From an uncultured Chloroflexia bacterium (GTDB lineage: Bacteria > Chloroflexota > Limnocylindria > Limnocylindrales > CSP1-4), in the NCBI GenBank assembly GCA_963738685.1, contig CAVTXK010000002.1:1042602-1106601 (forward strand): a stretch of 64,000 nucleotides of DNA, given 5' to 3'. Below are positions 34,527-62,187 of the stretch, piece after piece. The position numbers and the translations under genes were made by a program. A model generated the notes under the pieces. The model had not been told where the DNA came from. It saw only the letters and a list, made by a program, of their open reading frames with translations, and did no database searches. Each line of letters begins with the position of its first letter. Position 1 is the first letter of the stretch.

Positions 34527-34580
34527 CCCCAGCCCGCCCGACCAGCCAGCACGGGTCGGCGCGCCGACCTGCGGCGCGTC

Positions 34581-34640
34581 CGATCGAAGGGCGTGCGCCC
34601 CACGCACGCCCGGTCGAAGCGCGTGCGCCCCACGCACGCA
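34581..34640. repeat. 2 x 30-bp tandem repeat carrying the palindrome GTGCG-N5-CGCAC
   Basis: cgatcgaagggcgtgcgccccacgcacgcc / cggtcgaagcgcgtgcgccccacgcacgca. A third, related box ggcgtgcaccccatgcacgcc lies near 34693. Confidence 0.8.
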
Positions 34641-34738
34641 TCGACGAACGACCGCAATCGGCACCGCCGATTCCGACGAATGCGCGGCTCTGGCGTGCAC
34701 CCCATGCACGCCCAGCGAGTGAGGCGCCGGATCCGACC

Positions 34739-34990
34739 GTTCGACCGCGGATACGGGCACCCAGTGCACGCTCGACGCTCGAACGTCGCGCCGCGGGGCA
34801 GCCCGGAGCGTTCGACCGCGGATACGGGCACCTCGTGCACAAGCGACGCCCGAGCGTCACGTCGCGGGGCAGCAAGGAGCGTTCGACCGCGGATACGGGC
34901 ACCCCGTGCACACGCGACGCCCGAGCGTCACGTCCCGGGGCAGCCCCGAGCCTCGGCCGCGGGTACGTACACCCGCGGCATGCGCGACGC
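34739..34990. repeat. about 3.5 x 71-bp tandem repeat upstream of polX
   Basis: Units start at 34739, 34810 and 34881, with a degenerate fourth near 34951. Consensus is GTTCGACCGCGGATACGGGCACCnnGTGCACnnGCGACGCCCGAGCGTCACGTCnCGGGGCAGCnnGGAGC. The period is not a multiple of 3. Confidence 0.85.
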
Positions 34991-35110
34991 TCGAGCGTCC
35001 GCGGCGGGCGACGCCCGAGCGTCCGCGGCGCGCATCGAGCGGCAAGCGCCAGGCGCCCACCCAGCCCCGACCTGGCCGCGCAACGGCGCATCGGCACGTA
35101 CCATCCCCAC

Positions 35111-39048: not shown

Positions 39049-39300
39049 GTAACTACCAGACACGAGAATGGCACAAGTTCCTCGTGATCCGTCACCCTGG
39101 CGGCAGTATTCCGCAGCCTGGGCATCGGATCGTGCACGGCTGTGCCGAATCGGTGCCTGGGAGTGACACGGGCGGGCGCCCACGCACGGCTGTGCCGAAA
39201 CGGTGCCTGGGAGTGACACGGGTCGGGCGCCCACGCACGGCTGTGCCGAAACGGTGCCTGGGAGTGACACGGGTCGGGCGCCCACCCACGGCTGTGCCGG
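39049..39300 (-). repeat. GTCAC-TIR element copy L1: 121-bp core plus about 2.5 tandem 51-bp half-units
   Basis: Core 39049-39169: gtaactaccagacac..cctcgtgatc..ggatcgtgcacggctgtgcc..cggtgcctgggagtgac. The motif cggtgcctgggagtgacac repeats at 39151, 39201 and 39252. Confidence 0.85.
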
Positions 39301-40568: not shown

Positions 40569-40631
40569 GTCGTCCTGGCGCGGTCGCAGCCGCGTCCGAC
40601 TCGATGGGGCGGTCCGTCCGGTAGCATCTGC

Positions 40632-43333
40632 ATGACGATGACCGGTCGTGCCACCACCACGCGCGTCGAGACGGGGTTCTCACTCCCTGCCTTCGACCGG
40701 CTCGCGCCCGCTCCGTCGCTGGCCCTGCTCGCGGCGCGAATCGAAGCCCACACCGGACCGGGCGACGTCGTCGCCGATCTCGCCGGGCGGGGCGGCTGGG
40801 TGGCACGCGCCGCCCTGGACCGCCAGCGCCGCGCGGTCTCGATCGAGTCGACGCCGCTCACCCGGATGCTGGCCGAGGTCGTCCTCCGCCCGCCGGATGT
40901 CCGCCATCTCGACGCGGCCTTCCAGGGGATGTCCGCCTCACCGCGCCGCGAATCGAGCCTCAAGGTGTCGATCGGCGACCTGTTCGCCACGCGCTGTGCG
41001 ACGTGCGGCCGGATGCTCGTCGCGGACGAGTTCACCTGGTCGACCGAGGGCGACGAACCCGCGCGGGCCGTCGCCCGCCACTATCGATGCACGGTCTGCC
41101 GCGACCAGCGCGGCGGTTCGGAGCAGCGCCAGGCACCGCTGGAGCCCGACGACGTCCGGCGCTCGACCGCTGACGCCGATCTCGAGGCGGCTCGAGCCTG
41201 GGCGCGCGAACGGTTCCCGCCGGTCGAGGGCGCCACGACCCTCGTCGACGAGTTGCTCGAGCTGCATACGCCTCGGCAGCTCATCGCTCTGACCGCGATC
41301 ATGGAACGGATCGAGACCGACCTGCGGGCCGCCCCGGTCCTGGCCGCGCTCCGTCTCGCGCTGTTGCACGCGCTGATCCCGGCCAGCCGGCTGGCGAGCG
41401 GCGCAGGTCGCGGTGGGGCGCTGCGCGTGTCGCGGCGGCCACGTCCGTCTGCCGAGCGCGACCCAGTGGCGCGAGCGCAACCCGTGGCTCGCGTTCGAGG
41501 AGTCGTTCCGGGGTGTGCGTGGGTTCGTGCAGCGCCTCGAGGGCGGCGCGCTGGGCCCGCTCCAGGCCCGCCTCGGCGAGGACCTCCGTTCGCTGGGGGA
41601 GGGGTCGGCGACGGCCGTGCTCGCGGTGGCCAGCCCCTCGGCGGTCCGGGCCCTGAGCGACGGCGGGGCCAGCGCCGGCTGGGACCGCTCCGCGACGCCC
41701 GCGCCGCGCGTCCGGCTGGTGCTCGGCCAGCCGCCCATCCGCCCGAGCCTGGACCGGCTGGCTGCCGCGTACCACGGGACGGCCTGGACCCTCGGCCGCG
41801 AGGCCGCGTCGCTGCTGCCCGTCGATGCCCTGGCCGACACGCTCGCTGCGGGCACCCTGGTCGTGGCAGGCCGTGGCGATCAGTCGCGTCGCTCGCGGCC
41901 GTGGAGCCGGTCATGGCCCGCGATGGTCGGGTCGTCCAGCTCGTCGATGGTGGGATGGAGGCGCTCGCCGCGGTCGCGATCGGTGGCGCGTCGGCCGGGT
42001 ATCGCGTTGCCGTCGCGCGGCTGTCGGATCCGGACGATGCCGCGGCCGGGGTCATCGAGCTCATGCCGCCCGGGTCGGCCGTGCCGCCCGGCCCGCGGAC
42101 CCGGGCGAACGTCGGCTTGCCCGCGGTTCCGGGTGGGTCCGGCGACCCGGACATGGTCCCGGGGCGCGGCCTGTTCGCCCCACCCGAGCGCTTCGACCAG
42201 CGGCCGTTCTCCGTCGCCGATGCGGCCAAGGTCGTGACCGACGCCGCCGTCGAGACGCTGCGAGCCCGCGGCGAGCCGGCCCGCATGGAGCGGCTGTTCG
42301 GCGAGATCCTCGTCGGCCTGGACCGGTCCGGGCAGCTCCGGCGGCTGGCGACGGGGGCCCGCCCCGGGCATGTCGCGCGACGACGCCGCCGGCGACGCCC
42401 ACGCCGGCCGAACCGGCCCCCGACGACGTCATCCTCCGGACCGATGGCGGCGACCCCGTCGAGCGGCTCCTCGCCCTCATCCGCGACGAACTCGCCCGCC
42501 CGGATCAGCGACGTCTCGTCGAGATCGAGCCCGGCCGCTGGTGGCTCGGCGACCAGGCGGATCGGGATGCTGCCGCCGCGCCGCTCGCCGACCGCGTCGA
42601 GTGGGCCGTGTTCAGCCTCCTCTCGACGGCCGGCCCGCTGTCCGAGGCCGCGTTCTACGAGCGGATGGCCACGATGTTCAGCGGTCACGACCTGCCGGAC
42701 GAGACCCTCGTGCGGGCGTGCCTCGAGAGCTACCGGAGCCTCGCGAGCACCCCGGATCGCCTGGTCACCGGCGACGACCTGTTGAAGCGGAGCCAGGAGC
42801 ACTCGGAGCTACTCGCCGCGATCACGGAGGGCGGGCACCGGATGGGGATGCGCGTCTGGCTCGCGGAACGCGAGCAGGCCCGGCGGCACGGCCAGGGCAC
42901 ACTCGGCGACCTGCTCGACGAACGTGAGCGCAACGCCTATCTCGGCAGCATCGGCCGTCCGACCGAGGATCTCGCCGAGATCGATGCGATCTGGTACATC
43001 CGCGGCAAGGTCGCGTTCCTGTTCGAGGTCGAATGGACGGCCATCCTGGGTGAACCGTTGCTGCGCCGGCATGCCCGGATCGGAGCCGACGAGCGACTCA
43101 TCCGGTTCCTCGTCGTGGCCCCGGAGCGGACCGATCTCGTGCGCCACAAGCTCGAGCGCTCGCCGGTTCTCCGGGCCGCGATGGAGGAGGGTGGCTGGAA
43201 CATCATCAAGTGGGACCACCTGCGCACCTTCCTCGAGGCGGAGACCCCCGATCTCGACGACCTCGAGCCACTGCTCGGCCTCGATCCGGTCGTCGAGCGA
43301 GGCGGCGAGCAGATGCCGTTGTTCGGCGGCTGA
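40632..43333 (+). pseudogene. large (about 900 aa) Zn-ribbon methyltransferase-like / nuclease-like protein, at least 4 frame switches
   Basis: Coding signal (high GC3, plausible peptide) runs 40632-~41432 in the frame of ORF 40632. It continues ~41434-41880 in the frame of ORF 41413, 41883-~42355 back in the frame of ORF 40632, ~42370-42418 in the frame of ORF 42370, and 42420-43333 in the frame of ORF 41825. The N-terminus has VVADLAGRGGWVARAA (SAM motif I-like) and CATCG..x..CTVC. The C-terminus has EIDAIWYIRGKVAFLFEVEW. Confidence 0.65.
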
Positions 43334-43417
43334 GAGCGGCGGACGCTACGCTAGCGCTCCACATCCGCGCGGTCGCCTGACCGCGCCCTTTTGCTGCCCC
43401 GGGGAGGCGACCCGACC

Positions 43418-45101
43418 ATGACCGACGACCGTTCCGCCGTGGATGCCCTGTCCGACCGATTCTGGGAGGGCGTGCTCGAGCTCAACCCGACGACCGCCAC
43501 GTTCTACGGCGACCCGCGCTACGCCGATCGCCTCGAGGACCCAGTCGCCCGAGGGACGCGCCAAGGCGCGGGACCTGATGCAGCGAACGGCCGACGAGGC
43601 CGCCGCGATCCCGATCGAGGGCCTCTCGACGGAGGAGCGCATCACCCGCGACATGCTCCAGGTCATCGGAGAGCTGGCGGTCGAGGAGGACGACCAGGGC
43701 CTGCACCAGCTCCGCGTCGTCGACCAGATGGGCGGCCCGCAGCAGCTGCTGCCGACCGCTTACCTCGTTCCAGCCGGTCGACACGCCCGAGCGGCTCGAG
43801 GCGTTCATCGCCCGGTTGCACGCGTACCCCGCGTTCATGCAGGCCAACGCCGACATCCTCCGCGAGGCGCTCGGCACCGGGCTGACGGCGCCGTCGATCG
43901 TGACCGAGCGGACCATCGCCCAGATGGAGCGGATGCTCGCCATCCCGATCGAGGAGGCGATCATCCCGGCCAGCGTCCAGGGCGCGTCCGATGCCGACCG
44001 TGAGCGGATCCGCGAGGTCGTCCGCGACGTGGTCTAGCCGGCCGACGCTGAACTTCCTCGATACGCTGCGCGGCGAGTACCGCCACGCCAGTCGCGAGGA
44101 GCCGGGCATCTGGTCAGCGCCCAACGGCGACCAGATCTACCGGACCGCGATCCGCAGCTGGACCACGCTCGAGATGGACCCGCGCGAGATCCACGAGATC
44201 GGGCTCGCCGAGCTCGAGTCGATCGAGGCCGAGCGGCGCGAGATCTCGCGGGCCGCGGGCTTCGGGGACGACACGAACGCCTACCGGGCGTCGCTCGACG
44301 CCGATCCGACGAATACGCCCGGCACCAAGGACGAGCTCGTGCAACGGGCGCGGGAGGACATCGAGCGGGCGATGGCGGCCGCGCCGCGGTACTTCGGCCG
44401 GCTGCCGGTGGCCGGCTGCGAGGTCCGCGCGGTCGAGGAGTACAAGGAGAAGGACGCGCCCTTCGCGTACTACTACCCGCCCTCCGCGACGGGCAGCCGG
44501 GACGGGCATCTACTACGCCAACGGCTACGACCTGCCGTCGCGCAAGTACACGAAGCTGGCGTCGACGACCTACCACGAGGCGGCGCCCGGGCACCACTTC
44601 CAGATCACGCTCGAGATGGAGAACACGAACCTCAACACCTTCCGGCGACTCGGTTCGCGCATGGTCGGCGGGGCGTATGTCGAGGGCTGGGGCCTGTACA
44701 GCGAGCGGCTGGCCGACGAGATGGGGCTGTATCGGAGCGAGGCCGAGCGGTTCGGGATGCTCGACGGCCAGGCCTGGCGCGCGGCGCGACTCGTGGTCGA
44801 CACCGGGATGCACGCCCTCCGCTGGGAGCGCCAGCGCTCGATCGACTTCCTGCGCAACGACGCCGGCCTGTCCGAGACCGATGCCGTGATCGAGACCGAT
44901 CGCTACATCTGCTGGCCGGGCCAGGCCCTGACCTACAAGCTTGGCCAGCGCCAGATCGAGGCGTTGCGGCGCGAGATCACGGAGCGCGACGGCTCGCGGT
45001 TCGACCTGCGCGAGTTCCACGACCAGGTCCTGGGGCACGGGTCCCTGCCGCTCGCGACGCTGGCCCGCGAGTTGCCGACCTGGGTGGCCACGCCGGCCTG
45101 A
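43418..45101 (+). pseudogene. DUF885-family (metallopeptidase-like) protein with four +1 frame switches
   Basis: ATG at 43418 has GGGGAGG upstream. The peptide MTDDRSAVDALSDRFWEGVLELNPTTATFYGDPRYADRLEDP / SPEGRAKARDLMQ..VVDQMGGPQQLLP / FQPVDTPERLEAFIARLHAYPAFM..IREVVRDVV / RPTLNFLDTLRGEY..YYYPPSATGSRDG / IYYANGYDL..TTYHEAAPGHHFQ..TDRYICWPGQALTYKLG is spread over 5 segments. Switches fall near 43543, 43758, 44035 and 44504. Confidence 0.75.
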
Positions 45102-45102
45102 A

Positions 45103-45146
45103 CCCGCCCCGCCCCGCCGCCCCGCCCCGCCGACACGCCCCGCCCC
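45103..45146. repeat. C-run simple-sequence tract (G-quadruplex-capable on the minus strand)
   Basis: Seven runs of C3-C4 separated by 1-9 nt, starting 2 nt after the DUF885 stop: cccgccccgccccgccgccccgccccgccgacacgccccgcccc. Confidence 0.7.
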
Positions 45147-45156
45147 GCCGACCAAT

Positions 45157-45326
45157 GTCACCACCAGGCACACATTTCGCATAGCCGTGCTTGGCCGGCT
45201 CACGGAGGTAACTCCCAGACAACATCCCGGCACAGCCGTGCACGATCCGATGCCCAGGGTGCATAGAGCCGCGTACGGGGTGATGGACCACGAGGGACCT
45301 GTTCGGATTTGGTGCCTGGTGGTTAC
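45157..45326 (+). repeat. GTCAC-TIR element copy L2: one 51-bp half-unit plus 119-bp core
   Basis: gtcaccaccaggcacac..atagccgtgc at 45157-45207. Core 45208-45326: gtaactcccagacaac..cacagccgtgcacgatccgatgcccaggg..accacgaggga..ggtgcctggtggttac. Confidence 0.85.
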
Positions 45327-45831
45327 GCGACGGTAGGAGCGGGGCGCGGGGGCCTCGCCCGCCCCAGCCGACCTGGGTGGCCACGCCGCCGGCCCCGGCC
45401 TTGGCGACCCCTTCGGCCGAGCCCGGCCGGCCTGGTTGCCACGCGGCCTGACGCGTTGGGCACGTGCCGTCGAAGCCGCCTCGACGGCACGCGTGCCGGA
45501 CAAGTCGTGGGATTCGATCCCCATGCCGGCCCGGTCATGCATCCCATGACTACGACCGCGCCATCGCGGCGCGTACGGCCCAGCGGGCGCGCCTGCGACC
45601 GTGGCTGGGCCATCGATTTCGAGCGTGCACGACCGATCAGACGGCGAGCAGCCACACTGAATGCCCGCTTGCGGGTCTCGATGTGCCTGTCCTGGTCATG
45701 ACGCGAATATCCGGGCTGTGAGCACGCCAGAACCGCGCGCCCGCCACCCGTTGGTCAGCCCTTGGACCAGAGACAGGACCCGTTGCCGCAGCGCACCGCC
45801 AGTTCGGGCGGTGGTCGCTCCCACGCGTGAC

Positions 45832-45853
45832 GTTCACTTGCCGTTAACACCCT
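45832..45853 (+). promoter_or_regulatory. PHO-box-like pair of 11-nt direct repeat units
   Basis: GTTCACTTGCC GTTAACACCCT, 60 nt upstream of the PhoX-like ATG. Resembles actinobacterial PhoP direct-repeat units (GTTCACC core) and the Bacillus TT(A/T/C)ACA-N5-TTAACA pattern. Confidence 0.35.
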
Positions 45854-45912
45854 GTGGGTGGACCATTACGGACCCCAGCGAATGCCCCCGCACCGCACAC
45901 CAGGAGGCCCAC

Positions 45913-47749
45913 ATGAACCGTCCTCGGTCCGCATCCGGACGCGGTCGCGCGCGCCACGTTCTCGCATCGGCCGTCGCCGCGCTGATGCTCTTCGGCTCGG
46001 TGCCGCTCGTCTCGGCCGACGATGACGAGGCCGGGCCCTCGGGCCCGGGATTCGATACGAGCCGTGCGGCGATGCTCGACGGCATGCTGCCCGGGTTCAC
46101 GGTCGATCCCCTGATCACGACGGGCGACACACTACCGAGCGGGTACCGATTCGAATCGATTCCCGATGGGATCTCGTTCCTGCCTTCGAGCAAGGGCGAC
46201 GATGAGCGTCGCGCCTCCGGCGCAACCATCTTCGTCAACCATGAGACCTCGACCGTGCCATTCCCGTTCCCGCTCGACGGCGTCGTCGCGACGGAATCCA
46301 ATTCGCAGAACGACTTCGACAATTCCCAGGTCAGCCGGCTGAGCTTGAACGGCCAGGCGGGGATCGTGTCCGGCGAGATGGTGATCCAGAGCGGAGAGAA
46401 CTTCCATCGGTTCTGTTCCAATTACCTGCCCACCAAGAAGGAAGGCTTCGACCGCCCGATCCTGTTCACCAACGAGGAGGGCGTCGACTGGGTCAACAAG
46501 ACCGGGACCCAGTGGCCGGCGCCGATCGGCGGAGCGACTTCGCGCCAGATCGGTGTCGTCGTGGCGCACGACGTCAAGTCCGGCGACACCCGCAGGATCT
46601 GGGGCATGGGTCGTCTCAACCACGAGAACTCCGTCGCGATCCCCGGGTACAAGGACATCGTGATGCTCACCGGCGATGACACCTTCACGACGACTCCTTC
46701 CCAGTCGCAGCTCTACTCGTACATCGCCGACGACGATGGTGCCGTCTGGCGAGACAAGGGCGATCTGTGGGCGTTCCGCTCGACCACCGACGGCATCACG
46801 CGCTATGACGACTTCGATCCGTTGCTCGGGACGCCCGCCTCGATCACCGGCGAGTACATCAAGGTGCCGCGGCTCATCGCGACCGGCCGTCACGCCAACG
46901 GCGTCGACATCAAGTCGTCCGATCCGGAGGTCATCGCCCTGCTCGGTGGGAACTTCCCGCCACCCGCGGACGGTACCTGGCAGCGCCGGCCCGGCGCGCC
47001 GGTGAACCGAGGCAGGCATGGATGGCCCGCAATGGGTCCTCGAAAAGTGGTCTCAGCTGAATACCATCTTCGACTTCGTCCGCCTGGAGGACATCGCGTA
47101 CGACAAGCGCAAGGGCGAGCAGAACGTCGTGTACCTGGTCGACTCGGGCCGCGGCACCAACGCCACGCCGGCGAAGGGGACCTCGACCAATGGGCGCATC
47201 TGGAAGATGGTGCTCGACAAGAAGGACCCCAAGAAGGTGACGTCGCTGTCGATCCTCATCGAAGGAGACGACAACCCGGTCAGGACCCCGACCGAGATGC
47301 ACCAGCCCGACAACATCGAGTCGACGGAGAACGGGCTGTACTTCACGGAGGACCCGGGTTCCCAGCAGCAGTTCCCCGTCACGTCGACGGATCCGAACGC
47401 GACCACGGCGCGGATCTTCCAGTACCTGTTCAACCCGCCCGCGGCGCAGCAGAACCCTCGCCCGATCTTCAAGGTCAACCAGGCCCAGGACGAGGACATC
47501 GGCTACGACGTCGACGGCAACCCGGCCGTCGAAGGACCGTTCGGCAACCTCGGAACGTGGGAGGCGAGCGGCATCGTGGATGCTTCGGCGGCCTACGGAC
47601 CCGGGGCGTTCCTCGTGACCGTCCAGGCGCATACCCTCTGGATCGAGAAGGCTCCCGGGCCGGACACGATCGCACCAGCGGGTAACCCCGACTGGACCTA
47701 CAAGCGGGAGGGAGGGCAGCTCCTTCTGATTCGCGTGCCGGGCGCCTGA
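45913..47749 (+). pseudogene. secreted PhoX/DUF839-like protein with one frameshift
   Basis: AGGAGG at 45902-45907, ATG at 45913, and signal peptide MNRPRSASGRGRARHVLASAVAALMLFGSVPLVSA. The body has TIFVNHETS..GRLNHENSV.. in the frame of ORF 45661. After ~47008 it continues as ..EAGMDGPQWVLEKW..TENGLYFTEDPG..WEASGIVD in the frame of ORF 47018. GC3 is visibly lower than in neighbouring genes. Confidence 0.6.
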
Positions 47750-47815
47750 CCGGACGGCCGTTCGCCGGCCCCTGCACCGTCGATGAGGCCCGCCGACCGG
47801 CGGGCCTCGTCGTGT

Positions 47816-49219
47816 CTAGGAGTCGAAGCCGATCCCGAGCGCGTCGAGGGTCCGCAGGAGGACCCCACGGCGGCCGTCGTTGCGGTCCGCCCGGTCGAGC
47901 TCGTGGCGGACCGTCTCCACGGCAAGGGAGCGCAACGGCTCGGGCGGGAACGGGATCGGCGGGCTGGTCACGAGCCGAAGCCGGAGTCGGTCCTCGGATG
48001 GGCGCAGGATGAAGTCGCGGACGACCCCGGCGGCCCATCGACTCGCCCCGACGCCGAGCCCGGTATAGCCGAGCGCGTACGTCACGCGGCCGCCCATCGT
48101 CTGCCCGAACGTCACCGTGAAGCGCGATGTCGTATCGATCGCGCCGCCCCATCGATAGGGGAAGCCAAGGCCATCGAGCTGCGGGAAGGCGCGGAAGAAC
48201 TGGGCCGCGAGCTTGTCGAACGTCTGCGGCCGCTGGTCCAGTTCGGGCGCGACGCGACTGCCGAAGTGGTGGATCGCGTCGTAACCGCCCCACAGGATCC
48301 GGTCGTCGGCGGTGAGCCGGAAGTAATGGAACTGGTTGTTGGCGTCGCTCAGACCCTGTCGCCGTTCCCAACCGATCGACGCTCGCTGGGTCGGGGTCAG
48401 TGGCTCTGACACCAGGACGTAGTCGTACACCGGCACGAACAACGAGGAGAGGCGACGGAACCAGCCGGAGTAGGCAGACGTGGCGACGACGACGTGGTCC
48501 GCCCGGACCGTGGCGCCGGCCTCGGTGGTGACGTCGACCCCGCCGGCGCGGCGGCTGAGTCCGGAAACGCGGGTCCGCTCGTGGATGGCCACCCCGCGCT
48601 CCCGGGCCACCCGGGCCAGGCCGCGGCAGAGCTTGGCCGGGTCCACGAGGATGTCCCGGCCGGGCGGCCGGTAGAGGCCGGCGTGCCAGAGCGGGGAGTG
48701 GACCTCGGCCCGGGCAGCTTCCCGGTCCAGGAAAACGAGGTCCTCCCCGTGCTCGGCCGCCTCGTCCACCCAGGAACGGAACTCATCGATCTGGTATGGC
48801 TGGTCGGCCAGCGCCAGGGTGCCCGTCTCCTCGAGGTCGCAGTCGATGCCGTGGGTCCGGGTGAAGTCGATCAGGGCCGCGAGGTTCTCGATGCCCTCAT
48901 GCTCGAGCCGCGCCAGCTCATCGGGGAAGTGCTTGATCCCGTTCGCCAGACCGTGGGTCAGGCTCGCCTCGCAGAAGCCGCCGTTCCGGCCCGAGGCTCC
49001 GAACGCGACCGTCTCGGCCTCGAGGACGGCGACGCGCAACGTGGGGTCGGTGTCGGTCAGCTGGATGGCGGTCCACAGGCCGGTGAACCCGCCACCGACG
49101 ATGACGACGTCGACCTGCCGATGCTCCCCGGGGTCCAGCGGCGGGTCGGCCGTGCCCGCCGGCGCCGGGTTGCGCAACCAGTAGCTGACGGGCGTCGAGC
49201 GACCGGACAGGGGGCTCAT
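47816..49219 (-). CDS. FAD-dependent oxidoreductase (DAO family)
   Basis: ATG at 49219. Has the dinucleotide fold VDVVIVGGGFTGLWTAIQL and FGASGRNGG. 467 aa, intact. Confidence 0.85.
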   Translation of the reverse strand: MSPLSGRSTPVSYWLRNPAPAGTADPPLDPGEHRQVDVVIVGGGFTGLWTAIQLTDTDPTLRVAVLEAETVAFGASGRNGGFCEASLTHGLANGIKHFPDELARLEHEGIENLAALIDFTRTHGIDCDLEETGTLALADQPYQIDEFRSWVDEAAEHGEDLVFLDREAARAEVHSPLWHAGLYRPPGRDILVDPAKLCRGLARVARERGVAIHERTRVSGLSRRAGGVDVTTEAGATVRADHVVVATSAYSGWFRRLSSLFVPVYDYVLVSEPLTPTQRASIGWERRQGLSDANNQFHYFRLTADDRILWGGYDAIHHFGSRVAPELDQRPQTFDKLAAQFFRAFPQLDGLGFPYRWGGAIDTTSRFTVTFGQTMGGRVTYALGYTGLGVGASRWAAGVVRDFILRPSEDRLRLRLVTSPPIPFPPEPLRSLAVETVRHELDRADRNDGRRGVLLRTLDALGIGFDS

Positions 49220-49447
49220 CGGCGCATGGTGCCATGCCCATGGTCCCGTCATCACGCACGTCCGTATCCGCACGGAACCCCGCCAGACCGCGCGGGATTC
49301 GTCGCAGCCGGGTCAGATCGGGACGAATGTCGCGTTGACGTCGCGAACGGCCGTGTGGCACGATGAAACGACGATCGTCCCGTATCGCGCAACGCCCGTC
49401 CCATCGCTCGGGCCGTGCGCCCGACCACCTCCGCACTGAGGAGCCTC

Positions 49448-50848
49448 ATGACCACAGAGCCCGCCGCACGCGCGACCCCGAGCATCCGCCGCGACAAGCA
49501 GCTCGCGCTGTACCGGCGTGCCCTGGAGCACATGCCCGGCGGCACCGACTCGAACTTCCGGGCGTGGGGCGAGAGCACGATCTACGTCGATCGGGGCAAG
49601 GGCGGGCTCGTGTGGGATGTCGACGGCAACGAATTCGTCGACCTGCGGATGGGCTACGGGCCGGTCATCCTCGGTCACGGCGACGAGCGTGTCGACGACT
49701 ACGTCAACGAGCGCATGCGCCGCGGGGTCAGCTTCAGCCTGACGAGCGAGGACGAGGTCCGCGCCATCGACCTCGTGTGCGAGCTCAACGGCTGGGTCGA
49801 CAAGGCGCGCCTGACCGTGTCCGGCACCGAGGCCACGATGCACGCCATGCGGGTGGCACGTGCCTACACCGGCCGCGAGAAGATCGTGAAGTTCGAGGGC
49901 CAGTACCACGGCGTCCACGACTACGCGTTGATCAGCGTCGGACCGGACGACATGTCCGAGCTCGGCGACGCGGACGCGCCCGTGGCCCTGGCGTGGGGTC
50001 GCGGGATCCCGGCCGCCGTCGCTGACACCATCATCCCGGCCCGCTACAACCGGATCGATCGACTCCGCACGTTGTTCGAGCGACAGGGCGATGAGATCGC
50101 GGCGATCATCGTCGAACCCGTCCTGGGCAACGCCCAGGGGATCATGCCCAGACCGGGTTTCCACCAGGAGATGCGCGCCCTGACCGAGGAGTTCGGCATC
50201 CTCCTGATCTTCGATGAGGTCAAGACCGGGTTTCGCTTCGCCAAGGGCGGCGCGGCCGAGTTCTTCGGCGTCAGTCCGGACCTCGGCACGTTCGCGAAGG
50301 CCATGGGCAATGGCTACCCGGCCGCTGCATTCGGTGGTCGCAAAGAGGTCATGAGCGTACTGCCCGACAAGGTCAGCCACGGCGGCACCTACGCCGGGAA
50401 CCGGGTCGCCGCGGCTGCCGCGGTCAAGACGCTCGAGATCATCCGGGACACGAACGCGCTCGACACGATCCACGCCACGGGTCGGACGATCCAGGATGGC
50501 CTGCGCGAGCTGCTCAACCCGGTCGGGATCCCGTACCACTTCACGGGCCACCCGTCGATGTTCGGGATCATGTTCCGCGAGGAAGAGGCGACCGAGTACC
50601 GCGACTGGGCCACGACGGACCACGAGCTGTACGACGCCATCGCCATCGGCATGCACGCTCGGGGCGCGATGCCGGAGCCCGACTCGCGCGAGCCGTGGTT
50701 CATGTGCGAGGCGCACGCCGACGCCGACATCATCGACCGGGTGCTCACCTCGTTTTCCGATTCGCTGGACGCGGCGCTCGAGGAGCGGGCACGCGGCGGT
50801 CTCGGCGCCGATCCGGCGGGTGCGATGTCGCACCCATCGGGCGGCTGA
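49448..50848 (+). CDS. class-III (PLP) aminotransferase, glutamate-1-semialdehyde aminomutase-like
   Basis: GAGGAG 4 nt upstream of the ATG at 49448. Has MPGGTDSNFR, VSGTEATMHAMRVARAYTGR, LIFDEVKTGFR (PLP Lys) and HGGTYAGN. Confidence 0.88.
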   Translation: MTTEPAARATPSIRRDKQLALYRRALEHMPGGTDSNFRAWGESTIYVDRGKGGLVWDVDGNEFVDLRMGYGPVILGHGDERVDDYVNERMRRGVSFSLTSEDEVRAIDLVCELNGWVDKARLTVSGTEATMHAMRVARAYTGREKIVKFEGQYHGVHDYALISVGPDDMSELGDADAPVALAWGRGIPAAVADTIIPARYNRIDRLRTLFERQGDEIAAIIVEPVLGNAQGIMPRPGFHQEMRALTEEFGILLIFDEVKTGFRFAKGGAAEFFGVSPDLGTFAKAMGNGYPAAAFGGRKEVMSVLPDKVSHGGTYAGNRVAAAAAVKTLEIIRDTNALDTIHATGRTIQDGLRELLNPVGIPYHFTGHPSMFGIMFREEEATEYRDWATTDHELYDAIAIGMHARGAMPEPDSREPWFMCEAHADADIIDRVLTSFSDSLDAALEERARGGLGADPAGAMSHPSGG

Positions 50849-50870: not shown

Positions 50871-51674
50871 ATGGTCGTCGACGGCAACGCGGTCCGCTCG
50901 GTTGATCGCGCGGCAGCGCTCCTGTTGGCGCTGGGCGAATCGCAGGGTGAGGCCGGCGTCACGGAGCTCGCCCGGCGGCTCGGCCTGCACAAGTCGACGG
51001 CCTCGCGGCTCCTGGCCACGCTCCAGAAGCGGGGCCTCGTCGAACAGGACGACGAGACCGGCAAGTACCGGCTCGGACTCGTCGTCATCCGATTGGCGGA
51101 ACGAGCGGAGCGGACGCTCGACCTGCGCGGGATCGCGACGCCGGAACTGGAGCGTCTTGCCCGGCTCACTCACGAGACGACCGGGGTGGGCGTGCTGGAC
51201 GGTGATTCGCTCCTGACCGTGGCCCAGGTCGACGGCCCCAACCTGATCGCGGTGGGGGACTGGACCGGTCGCGCGACGCCCCTCCATTGCGTGGCGTCCG
51301 GCAAGGTCCTGATGTCCGCACTGGCCGAGCGGGACGTGCTCCGGATCGTGCGACGCGGGCTCGCCTCGTACACGGAGCGCACGCTCGTGGAACTCGAGCC
51401 GCTCCTGGAGGAGCTGGCCCGGATCCGGCGACGCGGCTACGCAACGGCGATCGGGGAGTACGAGTTGGGGCTCAACGCGGTCGCGGCACCGATCCACGAT
51501 GCGCGCGGGAACGTGATCGCGGCCGTGGACATCTGGGGACCGGCCTTCCGCCTCACCCCGCGGCGCGTCCCGGAGCTCGCGGCCCAGGCCCGCGAGGCCG
51601 CGGCCGCCATCTCGGTCCGCCTCGGCGGCACCGCCCCGGACCGCCAACCGACGCCGGTCACCGCCACGGCCTGA
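50871..51674 (+). CDS. IclR family transcriptional regulator
   Basis: ATG at 50871 in the frame of ORF 50496..51674. Has SVDRAAALLLALGES..GVTELARRLGLHKSTASRLLATLQKRGLVEQD (wHTH) and an IclR effector domain (..YATAIGEYELGLNAVAAPI..). Confidence 0.9.
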   Translation: MVVDGNAVRSVDRAAALLLALGESQGEAGVTELARRLGLHKSTASRLLATLQKRGLVEQDDETGKYRLGLVVIRLAERAERTLDLRGIATPELERLARLTHETTGVGVLDGDSLLTVAQVDGPNLIAVGDWTGRATPLHCVASGKVLMSALAERDVLRIVRRGLASYTERTLVELEPLLEELARIRRRGYATAIGEYELGLNAVAAPIHDARGNVIAAVDIWGPAFRLTPRRVPELAAQAREAAAAISVRLGGTAPDRQPTPVTATA

Positions 51675-51744
51675 CGCCGGCCGGCCCCGGCAGACCTGAC
51701 CGCGGCCTGGGCCCGGGCCCCTGAGCCCTGGCGCCGCGGCCGAT

Positions 51745-51913
51745 GTCACCACCAGGCACGTGTTCCGCGCAGCCGAGCGTGCCACCACGGCCGGTGTCAC
51801 CACCAGACACACTATCCGCTTAGCCGTGCACGATCCGAGGCTCAGGATGCGAAAACGGGCTACAGGTCGATCGATCACGAGGAACCTCTGCCGTTCTTGT
51901 GTCTCGGAGTGAC
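51745..51913 (+). repeat. GTCAC-TIR element copy L3: one 51-bp half-unit plus 118-bp core
   Basis: gtcaccaccaggcac.. at 51745. Core 51796-51913: gtcaccaccagacacactatccgcttagccgtgcacgatccgaggctcagg..gatcacgaggaacctctgccgttcttgtgtctcggagtgac. It ends 13 bp from the stop of the HTH/nuclease-like gene. Confidence 0.9.
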
Positions 51914-51925
51914 GAGCTGCGGGCG

Positions 51926-52707
51926 TCAGGCCGCCATGCGGCGCGCGGCGTCCGCGTAGTCCCGGTATGGAGCCAAGGATCGGCGTCCGTCGACCCGACC
52001 CTTCAGCAACCAATCTCGGCGCTTGCTTGAGGGATCGATCAGAGCAAGGCCCCGGCTCGGCGCCCCGGGCGGCATCTCCCCGAGCGGCGATCTGCAACAT
52101 CTCGGCGGCCCGCATCGGAAACGCCGTTCGGAGCACATCGACATTCGCGCGGATGGCGCCGTCGACTTCATCGCTGGCTAGCACGAGAAGCCACCCAGCG
52201 ACATGACGGATTCGCCACCCGAATCGCCGCGCGACCTCGGAGGCAGATCGTTCGTACCAGCCTAGCTGTCGCTCGATGGCTCCCAGGTCGTCGAAACGCG
52301 TCTTCAGCTCCACGATCAGCAGGATCCCGCTCCGCGGGTCGAACGCCACGAGGTCGATCCACCCGTGACTTCGACCGTAAACGACCTCGACCTCCCGGCG
52401 GACATCCCAACCAGCCCGACGCAGGCGGCGATCGACATAGCCCGAACACCGGGCGTGGACGACGTCGCGCTGTTGCGGGCCGGCGAATACCAGGGGAGGA
52501 CGCGCGACGAAGTCGAGCTCGATGCCGAGACGGTCGGCGATTCGCGACCACGACTTCGAGGGTGGGGTTGGCGCGGCCGCTTTCAATGTCCGCGATGTAC
52601 GCCCGCGAGATGCCGACCGCTTCCCCGAGGACCTGCTGGGTGATGTCCAGCATGGTCCTGGTGTCGAAGCAAAGGCGCGCAAACGTGACTCGTAGCGGGG
52701 AGGTCAT
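51926..52707 (-). pseudogene. XRE-family HTH protein fused to a PD-(D/E)xK nuclease-like domain, two frame switches
   Basis: ATG at 52707 gives MTSPLRVTFARLCFDTRTMLDITQQVLGEAVGISRAYIADIESGRANPTLEVV (frame of ORF 52168..52740). It continues as SRIADRLGIELDF..HGWIDLVAFDPRSGILLIVELKT..WLLVLASDE.. (frame of ORF 50745..52682), then ..PSRGLALIDPSSKRRDWLLKG..AARRMAA* (frame of ORF 51926..52171). Switches lie near 52550 and 52049-52070. Confidence 0.7.
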
Positions 52708-52769
52708 GCGGCATTGAAGCAGGCAGCGCTCACCCGGCACTTATCGCAAGGCCCTGACGGCCAGGGCTC

Positions 52770-53171
52770 GTCACTCCGAGACACAAGAACGGCACACGTT
52801 CCTCGTGATCGATCGATCTGTAGCCCGTTTTCGCATCCTGGGCCGCGGATCGTGCACGGGTGTGCGGATCGTGTGTCTGGTGGTGACACCGGCCGCGGCG
52901 AGACGCTCGGCTGTTCGGATCGTGTGTCTGGTGGTGACACCGGCCGCGGCGCCACGAACGGCAGTGCGGATCGTGTGTCTGGTGGTGACGTCGGCCGCGG
53001 CGCCACGACGGGGTGTGCGCATCGTGTGTCTGGTGGTGACATCGGCCGTGGTGGCACGCTCGGCTGTGCGGACACGTGCCTGGTGGTGACACCGGCCGCG
53101 GCGAGACGTTCGGCTGTGCGGATCGTGTGTCTGGTGGCGACACCGGCCGCGGCGAGACGTTCGGCTGTTCG
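52770..53171 (-). repeat. GTCAC-TIR element copy L4: 118-bp core plus five further 51-bp half-units
   Basis: Core 52770-52887 is the reverse complement of the L3 core, about 90% identical by eye over about 115 bp. GTGAC ends recur at 52887, 52938, 52989, 53040, 53090 and 53141. Confidence 0.9.
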
Positions 53172-53235
53172 TCCCGCACGGACCTCACACGGCCACGGCG
53201 CGGCCGCGGCCGCGGGACTCGCTACCCTTAGCGGC

Positions 53236-54177
53236 ATGCCCGATTTCAGCGAGCCGCCCTGGAGCGACATCGTCGCATTTGCCCGTGAGTACGTCGTTCC
53301 CGTCCTGCTGATCGTCGTCGTCGCGATCATCGCGCTGCGCCTCGCGGACCTGTTCGTTCACGGCATCGTCAAGGCGCTGCTGGATCGCGAGGCGACCGAG
53401 GGCACCGCCCAGGAGCTCAGCGCCGTCGAGCTCAAGAAGCGGATGGACACGCTCGAGGACCTCGGCGTCAACGCGGTCCGCTTCTTCCTGATCGTGATCG
53501 CCGGGTTGATGGTCCTGGGCCAGCTCGGCCTCGACATCGGACCGGCCGTCGCCGGGCTCGGGGTCCTGGGGATCGCCATCGGGTTCGGTGCCCAGACCCT
53601 GGTCCGCGACTACCTCAACGGGGCGTTGATCCTCGCCGAGAACCAGTTCAGCAAGGGCGATGTCGTGCGACTGGCCGGCGTGGACGGCACGGTCGAGGAC
53701 TTCAACCTCCGCCGCACGACGGTCCGCGACATCGACGGCGTGGTCCACACGATCCCCAACGGCGAGATCAAGGTCGCCTCGAACCTCACCCGCGTCTGGG
53801 CCCGCATCAACCAGGACGTCACGGTCGCCTACGGCACGGACATCGACAAGGCCATCGAGGTCGTCGATCAGGTCGGCCGGGAGATGACCGACGACCCGAT
53901 CTGGAAGCGGCGCATCCTCGAGGCGCCTCGGGTCGAGCGCATCGAGGCCCTCGGCGCGTACGGCGTGACGCTGAAGATCCTCGGCTCGGTCCGGGCGCCC
54001 GAGCAATGGGCCGCCGGCGGGGAGTTTCGCAAGCGGCTGCTCGAGGGCCTGGAGGCCAACGGCATCGAGATTCCCCGGCCCCAGCGCGTCGTGCTCGCGC
54101 AGGACCCGGCCGGCGGGCGATCGGTCGAGCTGGCCAACGGTCCCGACGAGGATGACCTGGCCGAGGGGACCGACTGA
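53236..54177 (+). CDS. mechanosensitive ion channel (MscS family)
   Basis: ATG at 53236 in the frame of ORF 52714..54177; the upstream part of that ORF is the repeat array. Three TM helices, then GIAIGFGAQTLVRDYLNGALILAENQFSKGDVVRL..GTVEDFNLRRTTVRDIDG. Confidence 0.88.
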   Translation: MPDFSEPPWSDIVAFAREYVVPVLLIVVVAIIALRLADLFVHGIVKALLDREATEGTAQELSAVELKKRMDTLEDLGVNAVRFFLIVIAGLMVLGQLGLDIGPAVAGLGVLGIAIGFGAQTLVRDYLNGALILAENQFSKGDVVRLAGVDGTVEDFNLRRTTVRDIDGVVHTIPNGEIKVASNLTRVWARINQDVTVAYGTDIDKAIEVVDQVGREMTDDPIWKRRILEAPRVERIEALGAYGVTLKILGSVRAPEQWAAGGEFRKRLLEGLEANGIEIPRPQRVVLAQDPAGGRSVELANGPDEDDLAEGTD

Positions 54178-57588: not shown

Positions 57589-57759
57589 GTCACCGCTGGG
57601 CACACATTTGCCACAGCCGTGCACGATGGGCAGGGCCCTCGTCACCACAGGGCACACACTTGATACAGCCGTGCACGATCGAGCGCTCAGATCGCGGATT
57701 CGGGCGATCAGGGAAGGCCATCACGAGGGAGCTGTGCCGATCGTGTGCCTGACAGTGAC
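57589..57759 (+). repeat. GTCAC-TIR element copy L5: one 52-bp half-unit plus 119-bp core
   Basis: gtcaccgctgggcacacatttgccacagccgtgcacgat at 57589. Core 57641-57759: gtcaccacagggcacacacttgatacagccgtgcacgatcgagcgctcag..catcacgagggagctgtgccgatcgtgtgcctgacagtgac. Lies between convergent genes. Confidence 0.88.
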
Positions 57760-57826: not shown

Positions 57827-59058
57827 CTAAACCCGGGCGGCGGCTCGCTGGCGGTTGAAGATCCCGAACCCCGACTTGACCGGCGGCACGTGCTCGGGCG
57901 TCCCGAGGAGGCGATCGGCGAGCGCGTCGAAGTCCTCGCTGATCTTCTCCTTGGGGAACATCTCGATGACGGTGCGCCCCTCGTTCGCCGCGCGGACGAA
58001 CAGCAGGCCGCCAGAGCGGATGAGGGCGAGCGACGGCATGCCGACGGTCCGCTCCATGTCCGCCACCGACACGCCGCTGTTGGCGCGGTTGATGACGAGC
58101 GCGAGCCGCTCGCGGATGCCCGAGCTCGGACGCGATGTCCGACAGCTGCACCGCGGCCCGGATGGCCGGCACGTCGGGCGTGACCGGGACGAGGATGCGG
58201 TCCGCGATCTCGAAGATGGCCTGGTTCAGCGGGCTGTACGACGGATGCAGGTCGACCACGACGAAGTCGAAGCCACGCCGCGCGGCGCTGATCGGCCTCA
58301 GCCACCCGGACCGGATCGAGGATCTCGGTGTGGAGCGGCGACGACGTCAGCGACACCACCCGGAGGCCGGACGGATGCGCCGACGACATCTCGGTCAGCG
58401 TTTCGACCGTGCCACCTTCGAGCTCGTCGCGCCAGCTGTCGACGACCGTGCGGCCCTCGTCGATGCCAAGCGAGGTGGTGACGTGGCCGGTGACCGTGTC
58501 CGCGTCGATGAGCAGCACGTTCTGGTTCTTGTGGAGCTGGAGGGCGCTTGCGAGGTTCGTGGCGACGGTCGTCTTGCCGACGCCGCCCTTCGGATTGAAG
58601 ACGGCGAGCACCGTGGCGCGGCGAGTCCAGTCGTCGGACTCGAGGGAGCCACCCTGGAGGATCGGCCCGGAGCCGTCGTCCACGGTCTGGCTGCGGATGC
58701 ACATCGCCTCGACGCGCCAGCGCAGCGACTCGGCCGAGTACGGACGGGTGACGTACTCGTCCTCGACGCGGCCATGCTGGTGCGCGGCGAGCTGATCGAG
58801 GGTGCGCGCCGACACGACCATGAGGGCCGGGATCGTCAGGCCACCATCGCGCAACAGGCCGTAGTACTCGAGCGACTGGTTGAAGTCGGTCTCGCCGTCG
58901 AGGATCGCGACCGCGACGTCGCGCCGGGAGTTCAGCAGGGCCTCGAGCTGGTCCGGATGCGTGACGGTGACGACCGGGAAGCCGGCTTCGCGGAGCTCGG
59001 CGGCGACCGGGGTCGCCTCGTCGTGCGGAAGCGCGATGACGACGGCAGGTCGAGCCAC
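57827..59058 (-). pseudogene. response-regulator receiver plus ParA/MinD-type ATPase (CpaE-like), two frame switches
   Basis: GTG at 59058 starts a REC-like N-terminus (VVIALPHDE..VAILDGE..), then FNPKGGVGKTTVATNLA and LLIDADT in the frame of ORF 57778..59058. It continues as ..FDFVVVDLHPSYSPLNQAIFEIADRILVPVTPD.. (frame of ORF 57768..58259), then ..IRERLALVINRANSGVSVADMERTVG.. to the stop at 57827. Switches lie near 58292 and at the GGG run (complement of 58119-58121). Confidence 0.7.
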
Positions 59059-59062
59059 GATG

Positions 59063-60556
59063 TCAGCTCTCGGTCTCGGGATCGCGGGCGGACACGGTCA
59101 GCTCGCCATCGGCCTCGGCGGTCACGCGGGCGGAGAAGCCCAGGAAGCGTCGCGATGACGTCCTTCATGGACACGTCCGGGGCGTGGCCGACCGCGAAGA
59201 TGAACTCTCCGTCGGGGCCGGACGAGACGCCGACCGACTGGATGCCGGAGACGCGGGACAGGTGGCGCTTGAACCCGGCGATGCTGGCGACGCTGACCAG
59301 GCCGGTCACGATGAGCTTCGTCGACGCGGACTCGGTCGTGCCCTCGGAGTCGGGGACGAGGCCGGCGAGCCGCGCGGCGAGGGCCTCATCGGCGATGACC
59401 GCGATCTCCTCGGCCGGGGTCTCGTCCGCGCTGAACGCGGCGGCCTCGGCCTCGGCGGCGGCGAAGTCCGGGGCCAGGCCAAGGGCATCCAGCCGCGGAT
59501 CGGCCTCGTCGGCCGGGGCGTCGACCCCGATGCTGAAGAGGTCGCCACCGGCCTCATCCTCGGTGGACGGGGCGTCGTCGGGGGAGGCGTCCTCGGCGAC
59601 CGCCTGGGTCTCGGCGTCGGCTTCCGCCTCGACCGTGGCCTGGGCCTCGGCCTCGACGTGGCTTCCGCCTCGACCGTGGCCTCGGGGGCGTCCGTGTATT
59701 CGACGGGGGCGTCGACGGTGGCTTCGGTCTCCGGCCACGGCTCGACCACGACGCTACGCTCGGCCGGCAGGTCGGGCGTGTCGCCGATCAGGCCGACGGC
59801 CTCGTCGGCTCGTCGCCGTCGAAGCCGGGCGGCTCCGGAAGGCTCTCGGCCATCGACGCGAAGCGGGTCGGATCCTCCTCGGCGAGCAGGCGCTCGAAGA
59901 AGGCGGCCATCTCCGCCTCGAAGGCATCGACCCGGGCCTGGACCTGGGCGACGCGCGGCGTCGATGCTGGCGGTATTCGCCTCGATCTCGCGCTCGAGCC
60001 GCGACTTGCGATGCACGATGCGCTCGTCGGTCTCTTCGCGGATGCGCGCGATCTCGGCCTTGGACCACTCGCGGACCGCCGCGACATCGTCGTCGGCCTG
60101 CTTGCGCAGGTCGGTCGCCTCGTTGGCGGTCGCGGCGTGGATGTGCTCGATGTGGGTCTTGGCGTCCGCGCTGAAGCGGGCCAGGGTGTCGGTGCGGGCG
60201 CTCTCGGCCGCGACCTGCATGGCCTTCGTGAGATCGGCCATGAACTTGTTCTGCTTGCGTACCGGCGCGGGGGCGGGGGCCGGCTCGCTGATCTGGGGGG
60301 ACTCCGACACGGGCTCCGCGGCGACCGACAGGTCGTCGCCAGCAGCCGTGGTGTCGTTGGCGGCGGGCGCGGTGTCGATCATGGCGGGCGTCTCGGTCTC
60401 CTCGTCGTGGTGGGTGCCGTTGCGCTCAGCGGCATCGAGGGTCTCGGACTCGCCGGTCGGCGCCTCGCCGGCGGGCGCGTCGGTAGCGTTCCCGTTCTCG
60501 CTCCGGTCCGGGCTCCACGGGAGCCGGAAGCCGGGCTTGGCGTCGGTCGTGGCCAT
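59063..60556 (-). pseudogene. acidic coiled-coil protein with a C-terminal globular domain, about 4 frame switches
   Basis: ATG at 60556 gives MATTDAKPGFRLPWSP.., then the coiled coil KFMADLTKAMQVAAESARTD..EIARIREETDERIVHRKSRLEREIEANTASIDAA / VAQVQARVDAFEAEMAAFFERLL.. / ADEAVGLIGDTPDLP.. / ..TVEAEADAETQAV..KLIVTGLVSVASIAGFKRHLSRVSGIQSV..FIFAVGH.. / FLGFSARVTAEADGELTVSARDPETES*. Switches lie near 59953, 59810, 59660 and 59150. Confidence 0.6.
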
Positions 60557-60728
60557 GCGTTGGGATCCTCGGTGACGTAGGGTTGCGCTCCAGGGCGTGT
60601 CGGTATGGTGCCAGCGGTGTCTGGTGTGGTGGAGTCCGCTAGAGGTACCAGTGGATAACGCCGGTCGTACCGTCGGGTCGGTGGCGTTGTGAGGCTGCAA
60701 CGGTCCCGACGAGTACGATAGGCGGGCC

Positions 60729-61748: not shown

Positions 61749-61877
61749 GTCCCGACCGCCCGCGTCCCGCGTGCCGCCGCCGCGCCCGCCCGCGTCCCGC
61801 CGGCGTCGCCGGCCCGCGTCGCCGGCCCGCCGCGCCCGCCCGCGTCCCGCGCGCCGCGCGCCCGCCGCCCCGCGGCG
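61749..61877. repeat. GC-rich low-complexity tract with a 50-bp internal repeat
   Basis: cgcgcccgcccgcgtcccgc occurs at 61781-61800 and 61831-61850, with a partial copy near 61754-61770. It fills the gap between the moaA stop and element L6. Confidence 0.7.
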
Positions 61878-62047
61878 GTAACCACCAGGCACACGTTCGC
61901 GACAGATCCCTCGTGAGCGGTCGCCCTGTACGCGATTTCAGGCGATCTGAGCGATGGGTCGTGCACGACCGTGCGGAATGTGTGTCTGGGAGTTACATCG
62001 GTGCCCTGGTCGTGCACGCCTGTGCGGAATGTGTGTCTGGGAGTTAC
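61878..62047 (-). repeat. GTCAC-TIR element copy L6: 119-bp core plus one 51-bp half-unit
   Basis: Core 61878-61996: gtaaccaccaggcacacgttcgcgacagatccctcgtgagc..gggtcgtgcacgaccgtgcggaatgtgtgtctgggagttac. A second gtcgtgcacgcctgtgcggaatgtgtgtctgggagttac ends at 62047. Confidence 0.85.
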
Positions 62048-62070: not shown

Positions 62071-62187
62071 CTAGGCCCCGCTAGGCCCCGCCCGGCCCCG
62101 CCCCCGGCCCGGCCCCGGCCGGCGCGTCACGCGCCGGCCCCGCCCCCGGCCCTGGCCCCGGCCTCCGGCCCCCGGCCCGGCCCCGAC
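62071..62187. repeat. GGCCCCG-type simple-sequence tract around a perfect 10-bp palindrome
   Basis: ctaggccccg is repeated twice, followed by C3-C5 runs. GGCCGGCGCG-TCA-CGCGCCGGCC lies at 62117-62139. Confidence 0.7.

Follow-up and report, generated by a model that had tools for sequence, protein, structure and literature searches.

To our knowledge, the only well-described bacterial repeat family that persists in its host genomes alongside an enzyme gene, present as a single copy and passed on vertically, is REPIN/RAYT. The genes of the REP-associated transposases (RAYTs) are flanked by their own repeats, are present in one to a few divergent copies per genome, and are inherited vertically (PMC2817692, PMC5581495). 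Here, we describe a gene that encodes a helix-turn-helix (HTH) domain followed by a predicted PD-(D/E)xK nuclease, and the ~120-bp intergenic element that flanks it, in a 64,000-nt stretch of DNA (the window) from an uncultured Chloroflexia bacterium (Chloroflexota; Limnocylindria; Limnocylindrales; CSP1-4; GCA_963738685.1, contig CAVTXK010000002.1, positions 1,042,602 to 1,106,601 of the forward strand). The Limnocylindria considered here are uncultured soil and freshwater bacteria. Across genomes, the gene is nearly always bracketed by its own ~120-bp repeats. We regard it as an evenly balanced proposition that the gene encodes a sequence-specific nuclease, resident in these genomes and inherited vertically, to which the non-autonomous elements are cognate, in a partnership like that of REPIN/RAYT.

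In the window, two copies of the element bracket the gene (Table 1). A repeat search found inverted arms of 202 nt, at 51729-51930 and 52753-52954, that are 88% complementary; the 118-nt cores within them, judged by eye in an earlier note on this DNA to be about 90% identical, are 92.4% identical in inverted orientation. The geometry described in that note is confirmed as well: the GTCACTCCGAGACAC ends of both cores point inward, to the gene, and 51-bp modules extend outward, with a single module on the left and five on the right, where extra copies of the end motif lie at 52924, 52975, 53026, 53076, and 53127 and Tandem Repeats Finder (TRF) reports an array at 52857-53168 with a period of 51 and 6.1 copies. 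The 856-bp interval between the cores holds a single minus-strand gene with the HTH and the D..ExK motif that had been read in it, and the element recurs at four other sites in the window, as that note had stated. These copies are only 67-76% identical to the bracketing cores. All six copies lie within 39-62 kb, around the gene, with none at 1-39 kb; of the degenerate end motif GTMACNNNSAGRCAC, the window has 19 occurrences (0.05 expected), every one of them between 39 and 62 kb.

Since elements occupy ~10% of the intergenic gaps at 39-62 kb, one doubly flanked gene per window would not be very unlikely, and an unrelated regulator gene could have ended up between two copies of an abundant intergenic repeat by chance. 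This explanation is refuted by the comparison with other genomes, for which we used 47 related loci (denoted by L numbers), all from Limnocylindria-type metagenome-assembled genomes and most with 10 kb on each side. A first nhmmer profile, built from five window cores only, gave 11 matches in other genomes, the duplicate locus L001 being left out of the count, and 11/11 were directly beside a homologous gene. After five iterations, the final profile detected 61 copies outside the window in the 825 kb searched, of which 50 lay at most 350 bp from the gene; 3.9% of the searched sequence is that close to it (binomial P ~8e-60). The end motifs, moreover, are specific to each paralogue (see below). 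Whether homologues elsewhere adjoin the element had been raised as a check on the earlier note, and both profiles answer it affirmatively, supporting the reading that the gene is tied to "its own" element.

At least one flanking copy was detected by hidden Markov model in 33/48 loci, with copies on both sides in 15; the loci missed by the profile mostly carry weaker matches, flanking repeats, or end motifs. In the usual layout, one copy starts 10-220 bp past the stop codon, and often a second one ends upstream of the start codon, at a distance of 60-180 bp; copies are found most commonly just past the stop codon, and L004 and L005 have no upstream element site at all. The two copies are direct in 13 of the 16 two-sided loci and inverted in 3 (the window, L039, and L028). 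The inverted bracketing described earlier thus holds for the window and is an exception rather than the general rule. Whole elements are also found as two tandem copies, either next to the gene or on their own (L048 10769-11033; L032 9650-9940; L033 20264-20552; L028 9571-9941). L028 additionally has three element copies within 2 kb downstream of the gene (10917-12739), with ordinary open reading frames (ORFs) between them, possibly a case of local spread; one ORF between the copies (11087-11869) resembles an S-adenosylmethionine methyltransferase, which is found at this locus only and is unrelated.

The gene product reads across three frames and has a joined length of 260 amino acids. The joined product matches HTH_3 strongly (E=5e-14; 52.4 bits versus a gathering cut-off of 23) and PD-(D/E)xK families, such as NucS_C and HSDR_N_2, weakly only: among the named nuclease families of Pfam and NCBIfam (NucS_C, MmcB-like, UPF0102, and Hjc), the best E values are 0.017-0.05 and none reaches the cut-off. 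The Pfam/NCBIfam scan returned HTH families and these weak matches only, with no HUH/Y1 (IS200/IS605 TnpA-like) domain. No curated family for the nuclease domain was found in Pfam, NCBIfam, or PADLOC; the PADLOC defence models gave HTH or controller-protein matches only, and a PDB sequence search gave matches for the HTH part alone. The homologue family comprises 950 matches, the best 120 of them at 58-75% identity, and 231 clusters at 50% identity (E<1e-30). Intact members have ~256-258 amino acids, and the named homologues are all from Chloroflexota, mostly Candidatus Limnocylindrales. The residues H83-A-x-C-S, E104, D117, and E132-x-K134 are invariant and remain so when a more diverse set is compared.

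In an AlphaFold2 model of the full protein, the HTH is followed by an alpha-beta-beta-beta-alpha-beta domain (predicted local distance difference test [pLDDT] score, 88), with helices at residues 81-96 and 140-160 and strands at 100-109, 112-122, 127-134, and 167-175. Modelled alone, the nuclease domain reaches a pLDDT of 95.8, and its top-ranked Foldseek matches in the PDB are PD-(D/E)xK nucleases: the restriction-like endonuclease (RLE) of the R2 retrotransposon (E ~2e-4), AF1548, Can2, Card1, Cdn1, XisH, and Hjc. The D...(D/E)xK signature falls on strands 2 and 3 of the core (D117 and E132-x-K134). Because of these fold matches and the invariant E..D..ExK residues, we assign the domain to the PD-(D/E)xK group, as the earlier note had suspected from the motif; as modelled, it is a nuclease fold with intact catalytic residues. 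Proteins labelled "XRE family transcriptional regulator" in Limnocylindria genomes are probably nucleases.

The HTH itself is nearest to the restriction-modification (R-M) controller proteins C.BclI and C.AhdI (36% identity over 55 residues), and HipB-type repressors are also close. This proximity fits a different account, in which the protein is an autoregulated transcription factor or an architectural protein, the 15-bp ends are its operators, placed beside its own gene and at sites of a regulon or of structural use, the elements are spread by another agent or by recombination, and the nuclease-like domain serves dimerisation, sensing, or an unrelated role in DNA repair. We consider this account unlikely. 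The invariance of the catalytic E..D..ExK across a deep family speaks against it, and the anatomy of the element, described next, bears on it from both sides.

The interior of the element, a ~90-bp core, is better conserved across lineages than are the ends, and its two boxes (CCTCGTG toward one end, GTGCWCGKYTGT toward the other) are kept in all lineages. In an alignment of 52 copies, the 15-bp ends vary with lineage (GTCAC..GACAC in the window; GTTCC..GGAAC, GGTCC..GGACC, GCATC..GATGC, GGTAC..GTACC, and GCGTC..GACGC elsewhere). They form G-NNN-C half-sites, two 5-bp half-sites per end, about one helical turn apart; in some element families, each end carries a pair of adjacent sites. When the two ends of one element are compared, complementarity is kept at positions 1-5 and 10-15, most of which show 12-26 double changes (positions 1, 10, 11, and 15 scarcely vary); at the spacer positions 6-9, pairing is absent in 33-60% of copies. 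Overall, the ends are complementary in 80.8% of cells, versus 60% in shuffles, as is characteristic of terminal inverted repeats. A dimeric HTH site, as in XRE-type operators, has this look: two constrained 5-bp blocks, set one helical turn from each other, around a free spacer. Because the spacer is free while the half-sites covary, the pattern suggests recognition of double-stranded DNA by a protein, not a single-strand hairpin or other nucleic acid stem. A conserved RNA or single-stranded DNA fold of the element was considered and rejected, since RNAalifold pairs the end blocks only and no internal structure is conserved; Rfam gave 0 matches at gathering score across the whole window. Coding potential of the repeats was likewise rejected, as other copies do not preserve the frame of the ORF that passes through the 51-bp units.

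Each extra end module combines 36 nt of subterminal sequence with a copy of the 15-bp end, and the modules have a period of 50-52 bp. They are always found at the GTGCWCG-box end and never at the other, in three genomes with different end types. This polarity and fixed length suggest a protein-set ruler. A regulator could also make use of such arrays, since 51-bp spacing could phase bound proteins; operator-like, too, are the bipartite half-sites one helical turn apart, the two adjacent sites per end in some families, as in C-protein operators, and the upstream copy that many loci have 60-180 bp ahead of the start codon. Against a regulator, the commonest position of the element is past the stop codon and not upstream, and L004 and L005 do without an upstream site. 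Nor are a ~90-bp conserved core, tandem end duplications, and presence or absence at orthologous sites features of operators, and flanking copies that are 92-98% identical over 120-165 nt point to recent copying and not to selection on sites.

We then compared the variation of the ends with that of the protein. Both flanking copies of one gene have the same end type. Paralogues of one genome have different end types, and half-sites differ between lineages as well. For example, L015 and L034, two paralogues of a genome with four, lie ~12 kb apart on contig JBPPMZ010000078.1 and have different end motifs, while a solo copy at L036 carries the end type of L047, the other paralogue of the same genome. 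In Mantel tests over 27 loci, end-motif distance correlated with HTH distance (r=0.56; partial r=0.54 when controlling for the nuclease domain; permutation p=2e-4) and weakly with nuclease-domain distance (r=0.19). The variable part of the protein therefore tracks the variable part of the DNA, which supports recognition of the element ends by the HTH; the conserved nuclease and C-terminal part, in turn, parallels the conserved core of the element.

The gene has the inheritance of a resident. The order acetyl-CoA synthetase, MscS, gene, IclR, aminotransferase is common to 14 loci from different genomes, in which the gene keeps this position despite protein identities of 55-70%, and genomes with two to four paralogues show only 48-61% identity between them, with no near-identical duplicates. 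Several near-identical gene copies in varied contexts, as expected of an insertion sequence (IS) transposase, were not found. Because of this synteny and paralogue divergence, the gene is vertically inherited and not IS-like, a pattern like that described for RAYTs (PMC5581495).

The same observations bear on the idea that element, gene, and element together make up a mobile or integrating cassette, either IS-like, with the solo copies as derivatives akin to miniature inverted-repeat transposable elements (MITEs), or resembling att sites or long terminal repeats (LTRs). In the latter version, a circle of the gene plus one element integrates at a solo element, which yields direct repeats, and excision leaves a solo copy behind. 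Direct flanking copies in 13/16 two-sided loci are what this version predicts; the near-identity of many flanking pairs (L015, 96%; L019, 98%; L043, 93%), the existence of solo copies, up to four paralogues per genome in different contexts, and the presence of XisH-type excision factors among the fold matches fit a cassette too. We nonetheless find a cassette distinctly improbable. It accords poorly with a gene that holds its position in 14 genomes while the protein diverges and with the lack of any within-genome paralogue pair above 61% identity, and the inverted arrangements of the window, L039, and L028 cannot excise by recombination between repeats. No gene remnants and no second paralogue were found near the solo copies of the window, and neighbour-ORF clustering, in which the clusters are unannotated, showed no recurring partner gene outside the syntenic context.

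The window is syntenic with L004 and L005 over 40.6-63.4 kb, and the solo copies at 45157, 57589, and 61878 fill gaps that are short or empty in these two loci; in one example, an orthologous gap of 82 bp is matched by one of 314 bp that has a clean ~210-bp extra segment. Solo copies are thus gained or lost at orthologous intergenic sites.

How might a resident nuclease maintain such elements? We infer binding, cleavage, and protein-driven copying of the elements, in the following order. A dimer of the C-protein-like HTH domain would read the half-sites at the element ends; the PD-(D/E)xK domain and the C-terminal tail would act on the conserved subterminal DNA, cutting at or near the ends; and host repair or recombination would then give rise to new copies near the gene, to the 51-bp one-end duplications, and to dispersed solo copies. 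The logic would be that of REPIN/RAYT, with a single-copy domesticated enzyme gene among repeats that the enzyme services. In its full form, this scheme amounts to an independently evolved system of resident enzyme and repeat, in which an HTH-PD-(D/E)xK nuclease with a fast-evolving HTH reads the ends and drives duplication and dispersal by cut-and-repair, which also yields the 51-bp end duplications; we put it forward tentatively and with less than even confidence.

Several points weigh against a nuclease that services its own repeats. The main weakness is chemical: we know of no strand-transfer activity among PD-(D/E)xK hydrolases, and a hydrolytic nuclease that cannot join DNA could not integrate it alone, so that copying would have to proceed via host repair or a further partner. 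Outside the window, solo copies are few, 11 in 793 kb of other genomes versus 4 in the 64-kb window, and the element in most genomes therefore mainly flanks the gene. The solo copies in the window are old, since they are only 67-76% alike. A scan of metagenome contigs with the element pattern gave one true match, a solo copy in L052 that carries a single extra module, and one chance match. No target-site duplication is visible in 58 copies, the filled and empty pairs being too diverged to fix boundaries. A minority clade (L040-L042 and L046) has vestigial flanking repeats at most, and the covariation of the HTH with the ends is only partly separable from shared ancestry.

The features of the window that belong to this system are collected in Table 1.

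Table 1. Element copies, end modules, and the enclosed gene (positions in the 64,000-nt window)
Feature	Position	Strand	Remarks
Extra 51-bp end module	51745..51795	-	One module, directed away from the gene; 36 nt subterminal plus end-motif copy GTCACCACCAGGCAC
Element copy 3' of gene	51796..51913	-	Immediately 3' of the stop codon; 118-bp core with 15-bp inverted ends GTCACCACCAGACAC / GTGTCTCGGAGTGAC
Nuclease gene	51927..52707	-	HTH (Cro/C1, XRE) plus predicted PD-(D/E)xK nuclease, ~260 amino acids; two frameshifts as assembled
Leader	52708..52769	-	Between upstream element and ATG; motif GCGATAAG..CTGCTTCAAT (read by eye)
Element copy upstream of gene	52770..52887	+	92.4% identical to 51796-51913, inverted
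Extra 51-bp end modules	52888..53171	+	Five modules plus one partial, directed away from the gene
Solo element	39049..39300	+	Core 39049-39167, then extra 51-bp module array (TRF 39134-39299, 3.3 copies)
Solo element	45157..45326	-	Core 45208-45326; one extra end module 45157-45207
Solo element	57589..57759	-	Core 57641-57759; one extra module; between two convergent genes; site empty in syntenic L004 and L005
Solo element	61878..62047	+	Core 61878-61996; one extra module 61997-62047; intergenic gap ~500 bp longer than in L004
Duplicated end modules	51745-51795, 52888-53171, 39168-39300, 45157-45207, 57589-57640, 61997-62047		Also in L006, L012, L004, L005, and L052

Because the leader motif GCGATAAG..CTGCTTCAAT is kept even in homologues without an upstream element, the leader is probably the gene's own promoter or 5' untranslated region. 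A promoter and terminator consensus scan of 51500-53400 gave no match, and the leader contains no match to the sigma-70 consensus. Directly 5' of the start codon, the motif GATAAGG..GTGCTTSACT is also found in L001 (4950-5000), L015 (9960-10000), and L028 (9960-10006).

The two frame corrections that the earlier note had called for are indeed needed, with one frameshift near 52553 and the other near 52060-52075; one of them sits in C3/G4 runs. The frameshifts are poor evidence for the decay that the note had allowed for. Compared with their orthologues in L004 and L005, many conserved genes of the window are likewise broken into more than one frame, with one to four shifts each: four at 43412-45086 (82-93% identity to the orthologues), three at 40614-43330, three at 59069-60571, two at 57854-59307, and one at 47819-49670. 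The consensus of the window thus looks prone to indel errors, and two shifts in 780 bp fit that rate. Given the shifted neighbours, the frameshifts of the gene are probably assembly or consensus errors, mis-sequencing being the likeliest reading, and the gene is probably intact in the organism.

Other features of the window were noted in passing. G+C-rich, microsatellite-like tracts (CCCGCC, GGCCCC, and others) directly border many element copies (window 45103-45152, 61749-61874, and 62074-62185) and flank copies in L030, L017, and L006. Genes that adjoin each other in L004 and L005 are separated in the window by ~2.7 kb of DNA with a lower G+C content (0.66; 45330-47800), which begins beside the solo element 45157-45326; a probable secreted protein is encoded there by a gene with frameshifts (45661-47749). 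Another family of intergenic repeats occupies 34580-35033, where a 30-bp duplicate (34580-34639) precedes a 71-bp tandem array (34738-35008; 3.8 copies, 84% matches); by profile search, it is unrelated to the GTCAC element.

We found no description of this family or arrangement in the literature, and no precedent. If a nuclease that services its own repeats is correct, it would be a second case of such a partnership, with an unrelated fold and in another phylum, indicating that the partnership evolves convergently. It would also raise the question of how a hydrolytic nuclease gets DNA copied to new sites, offer a tractable specificity code in which HTH variants pair with 5-bp half-site variants, and explain a class of intergenic repeats, and the resulting assembly breaks, in abundant uncultured soil and freshwater Chloroflexota.

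Several known systems share parts of this arrangement. Like MITEs derived from a parent IS, the elements are short, non-coding, intergenic, bounded by terminal inverted repeats, and present or absent between related genomes. Unlike those, they come with no DDE, HUH, serine, or tyrosine enzyme and no visible target-site duplication, the protein gene is syntenic and has not multiplied, and the interior is more conserved than the ends. The R-M controller proteins and HTH-fused type II endonucleases resemble the protein in the affinity of its HTH to C.BclI and C.AhdI, in the fused restriction-endonuclease-like fold, and in the palindromic or bipartite sites. The present sites, however, sit at the ends of a repeated element, and no methyltransferase lies beside the gene in the window or the syntenic loci, where its neighbours are MscS, acetyl-CoA synthetase, IclR, and aminotransferase genes. 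In structure, the nuclease domain is best matched by the RLE of R2 and by XisH, each of which acts on DNA that is mobile or can be excised; the similarity is at the fold level only (10-20% identity; TM score, ~0.4), and no reverse transcriptase or recombinase is present here.

Integron attC sites, such as the ~120-bp Vibrio cholerae repeats (VCRs), are likewise imperfect palindromes of ~120 bp with two spaced boxes per end and direct orientation around a gene. The RYYYAAC/GTTRRRY boxes are not conserved here, however, the ends being G-NNN-C and lineage-variable, and on these box sequences an integron reading was rejected. The centre of the present element is conserved and not variable, and its solo copies stand among syntenic housekeeping genes instead of in cassette arrays.

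The closest parallel remains REPIN/RAYT. The enzyme here is an HTH-PD-(D/E)xK protein rather than an HUH/Y1 transposase, and its repeats, ~120 bp long, have a conserved core between bipartite inverted ends of 15 bp, unlike REP sequences, which are 20-40-bp palindromic hairpins headed by GTAG/CGTC. REP sequences occur in tens to hundreds of copies. The flanking copies are mostly direct rather than inverted, and the host belongs to Chloroflexota. Because the defining HUH enzyme and the REP hairpin are both absent, the family falls outside REPIN/RAYT. The earlier note's proposal of a REP/RAYT-like arrangement with a different enzyme fold is borne out nonetheless: an enzyme gene is flanked by cognate repeats (50/61 copies; 33/48 loci), occurs in few divergent, vertically inherited copies with no recent duplicates, and has a repeat variant for each paralogue, and the repeats are also dispersed and clustered in extragenic space.

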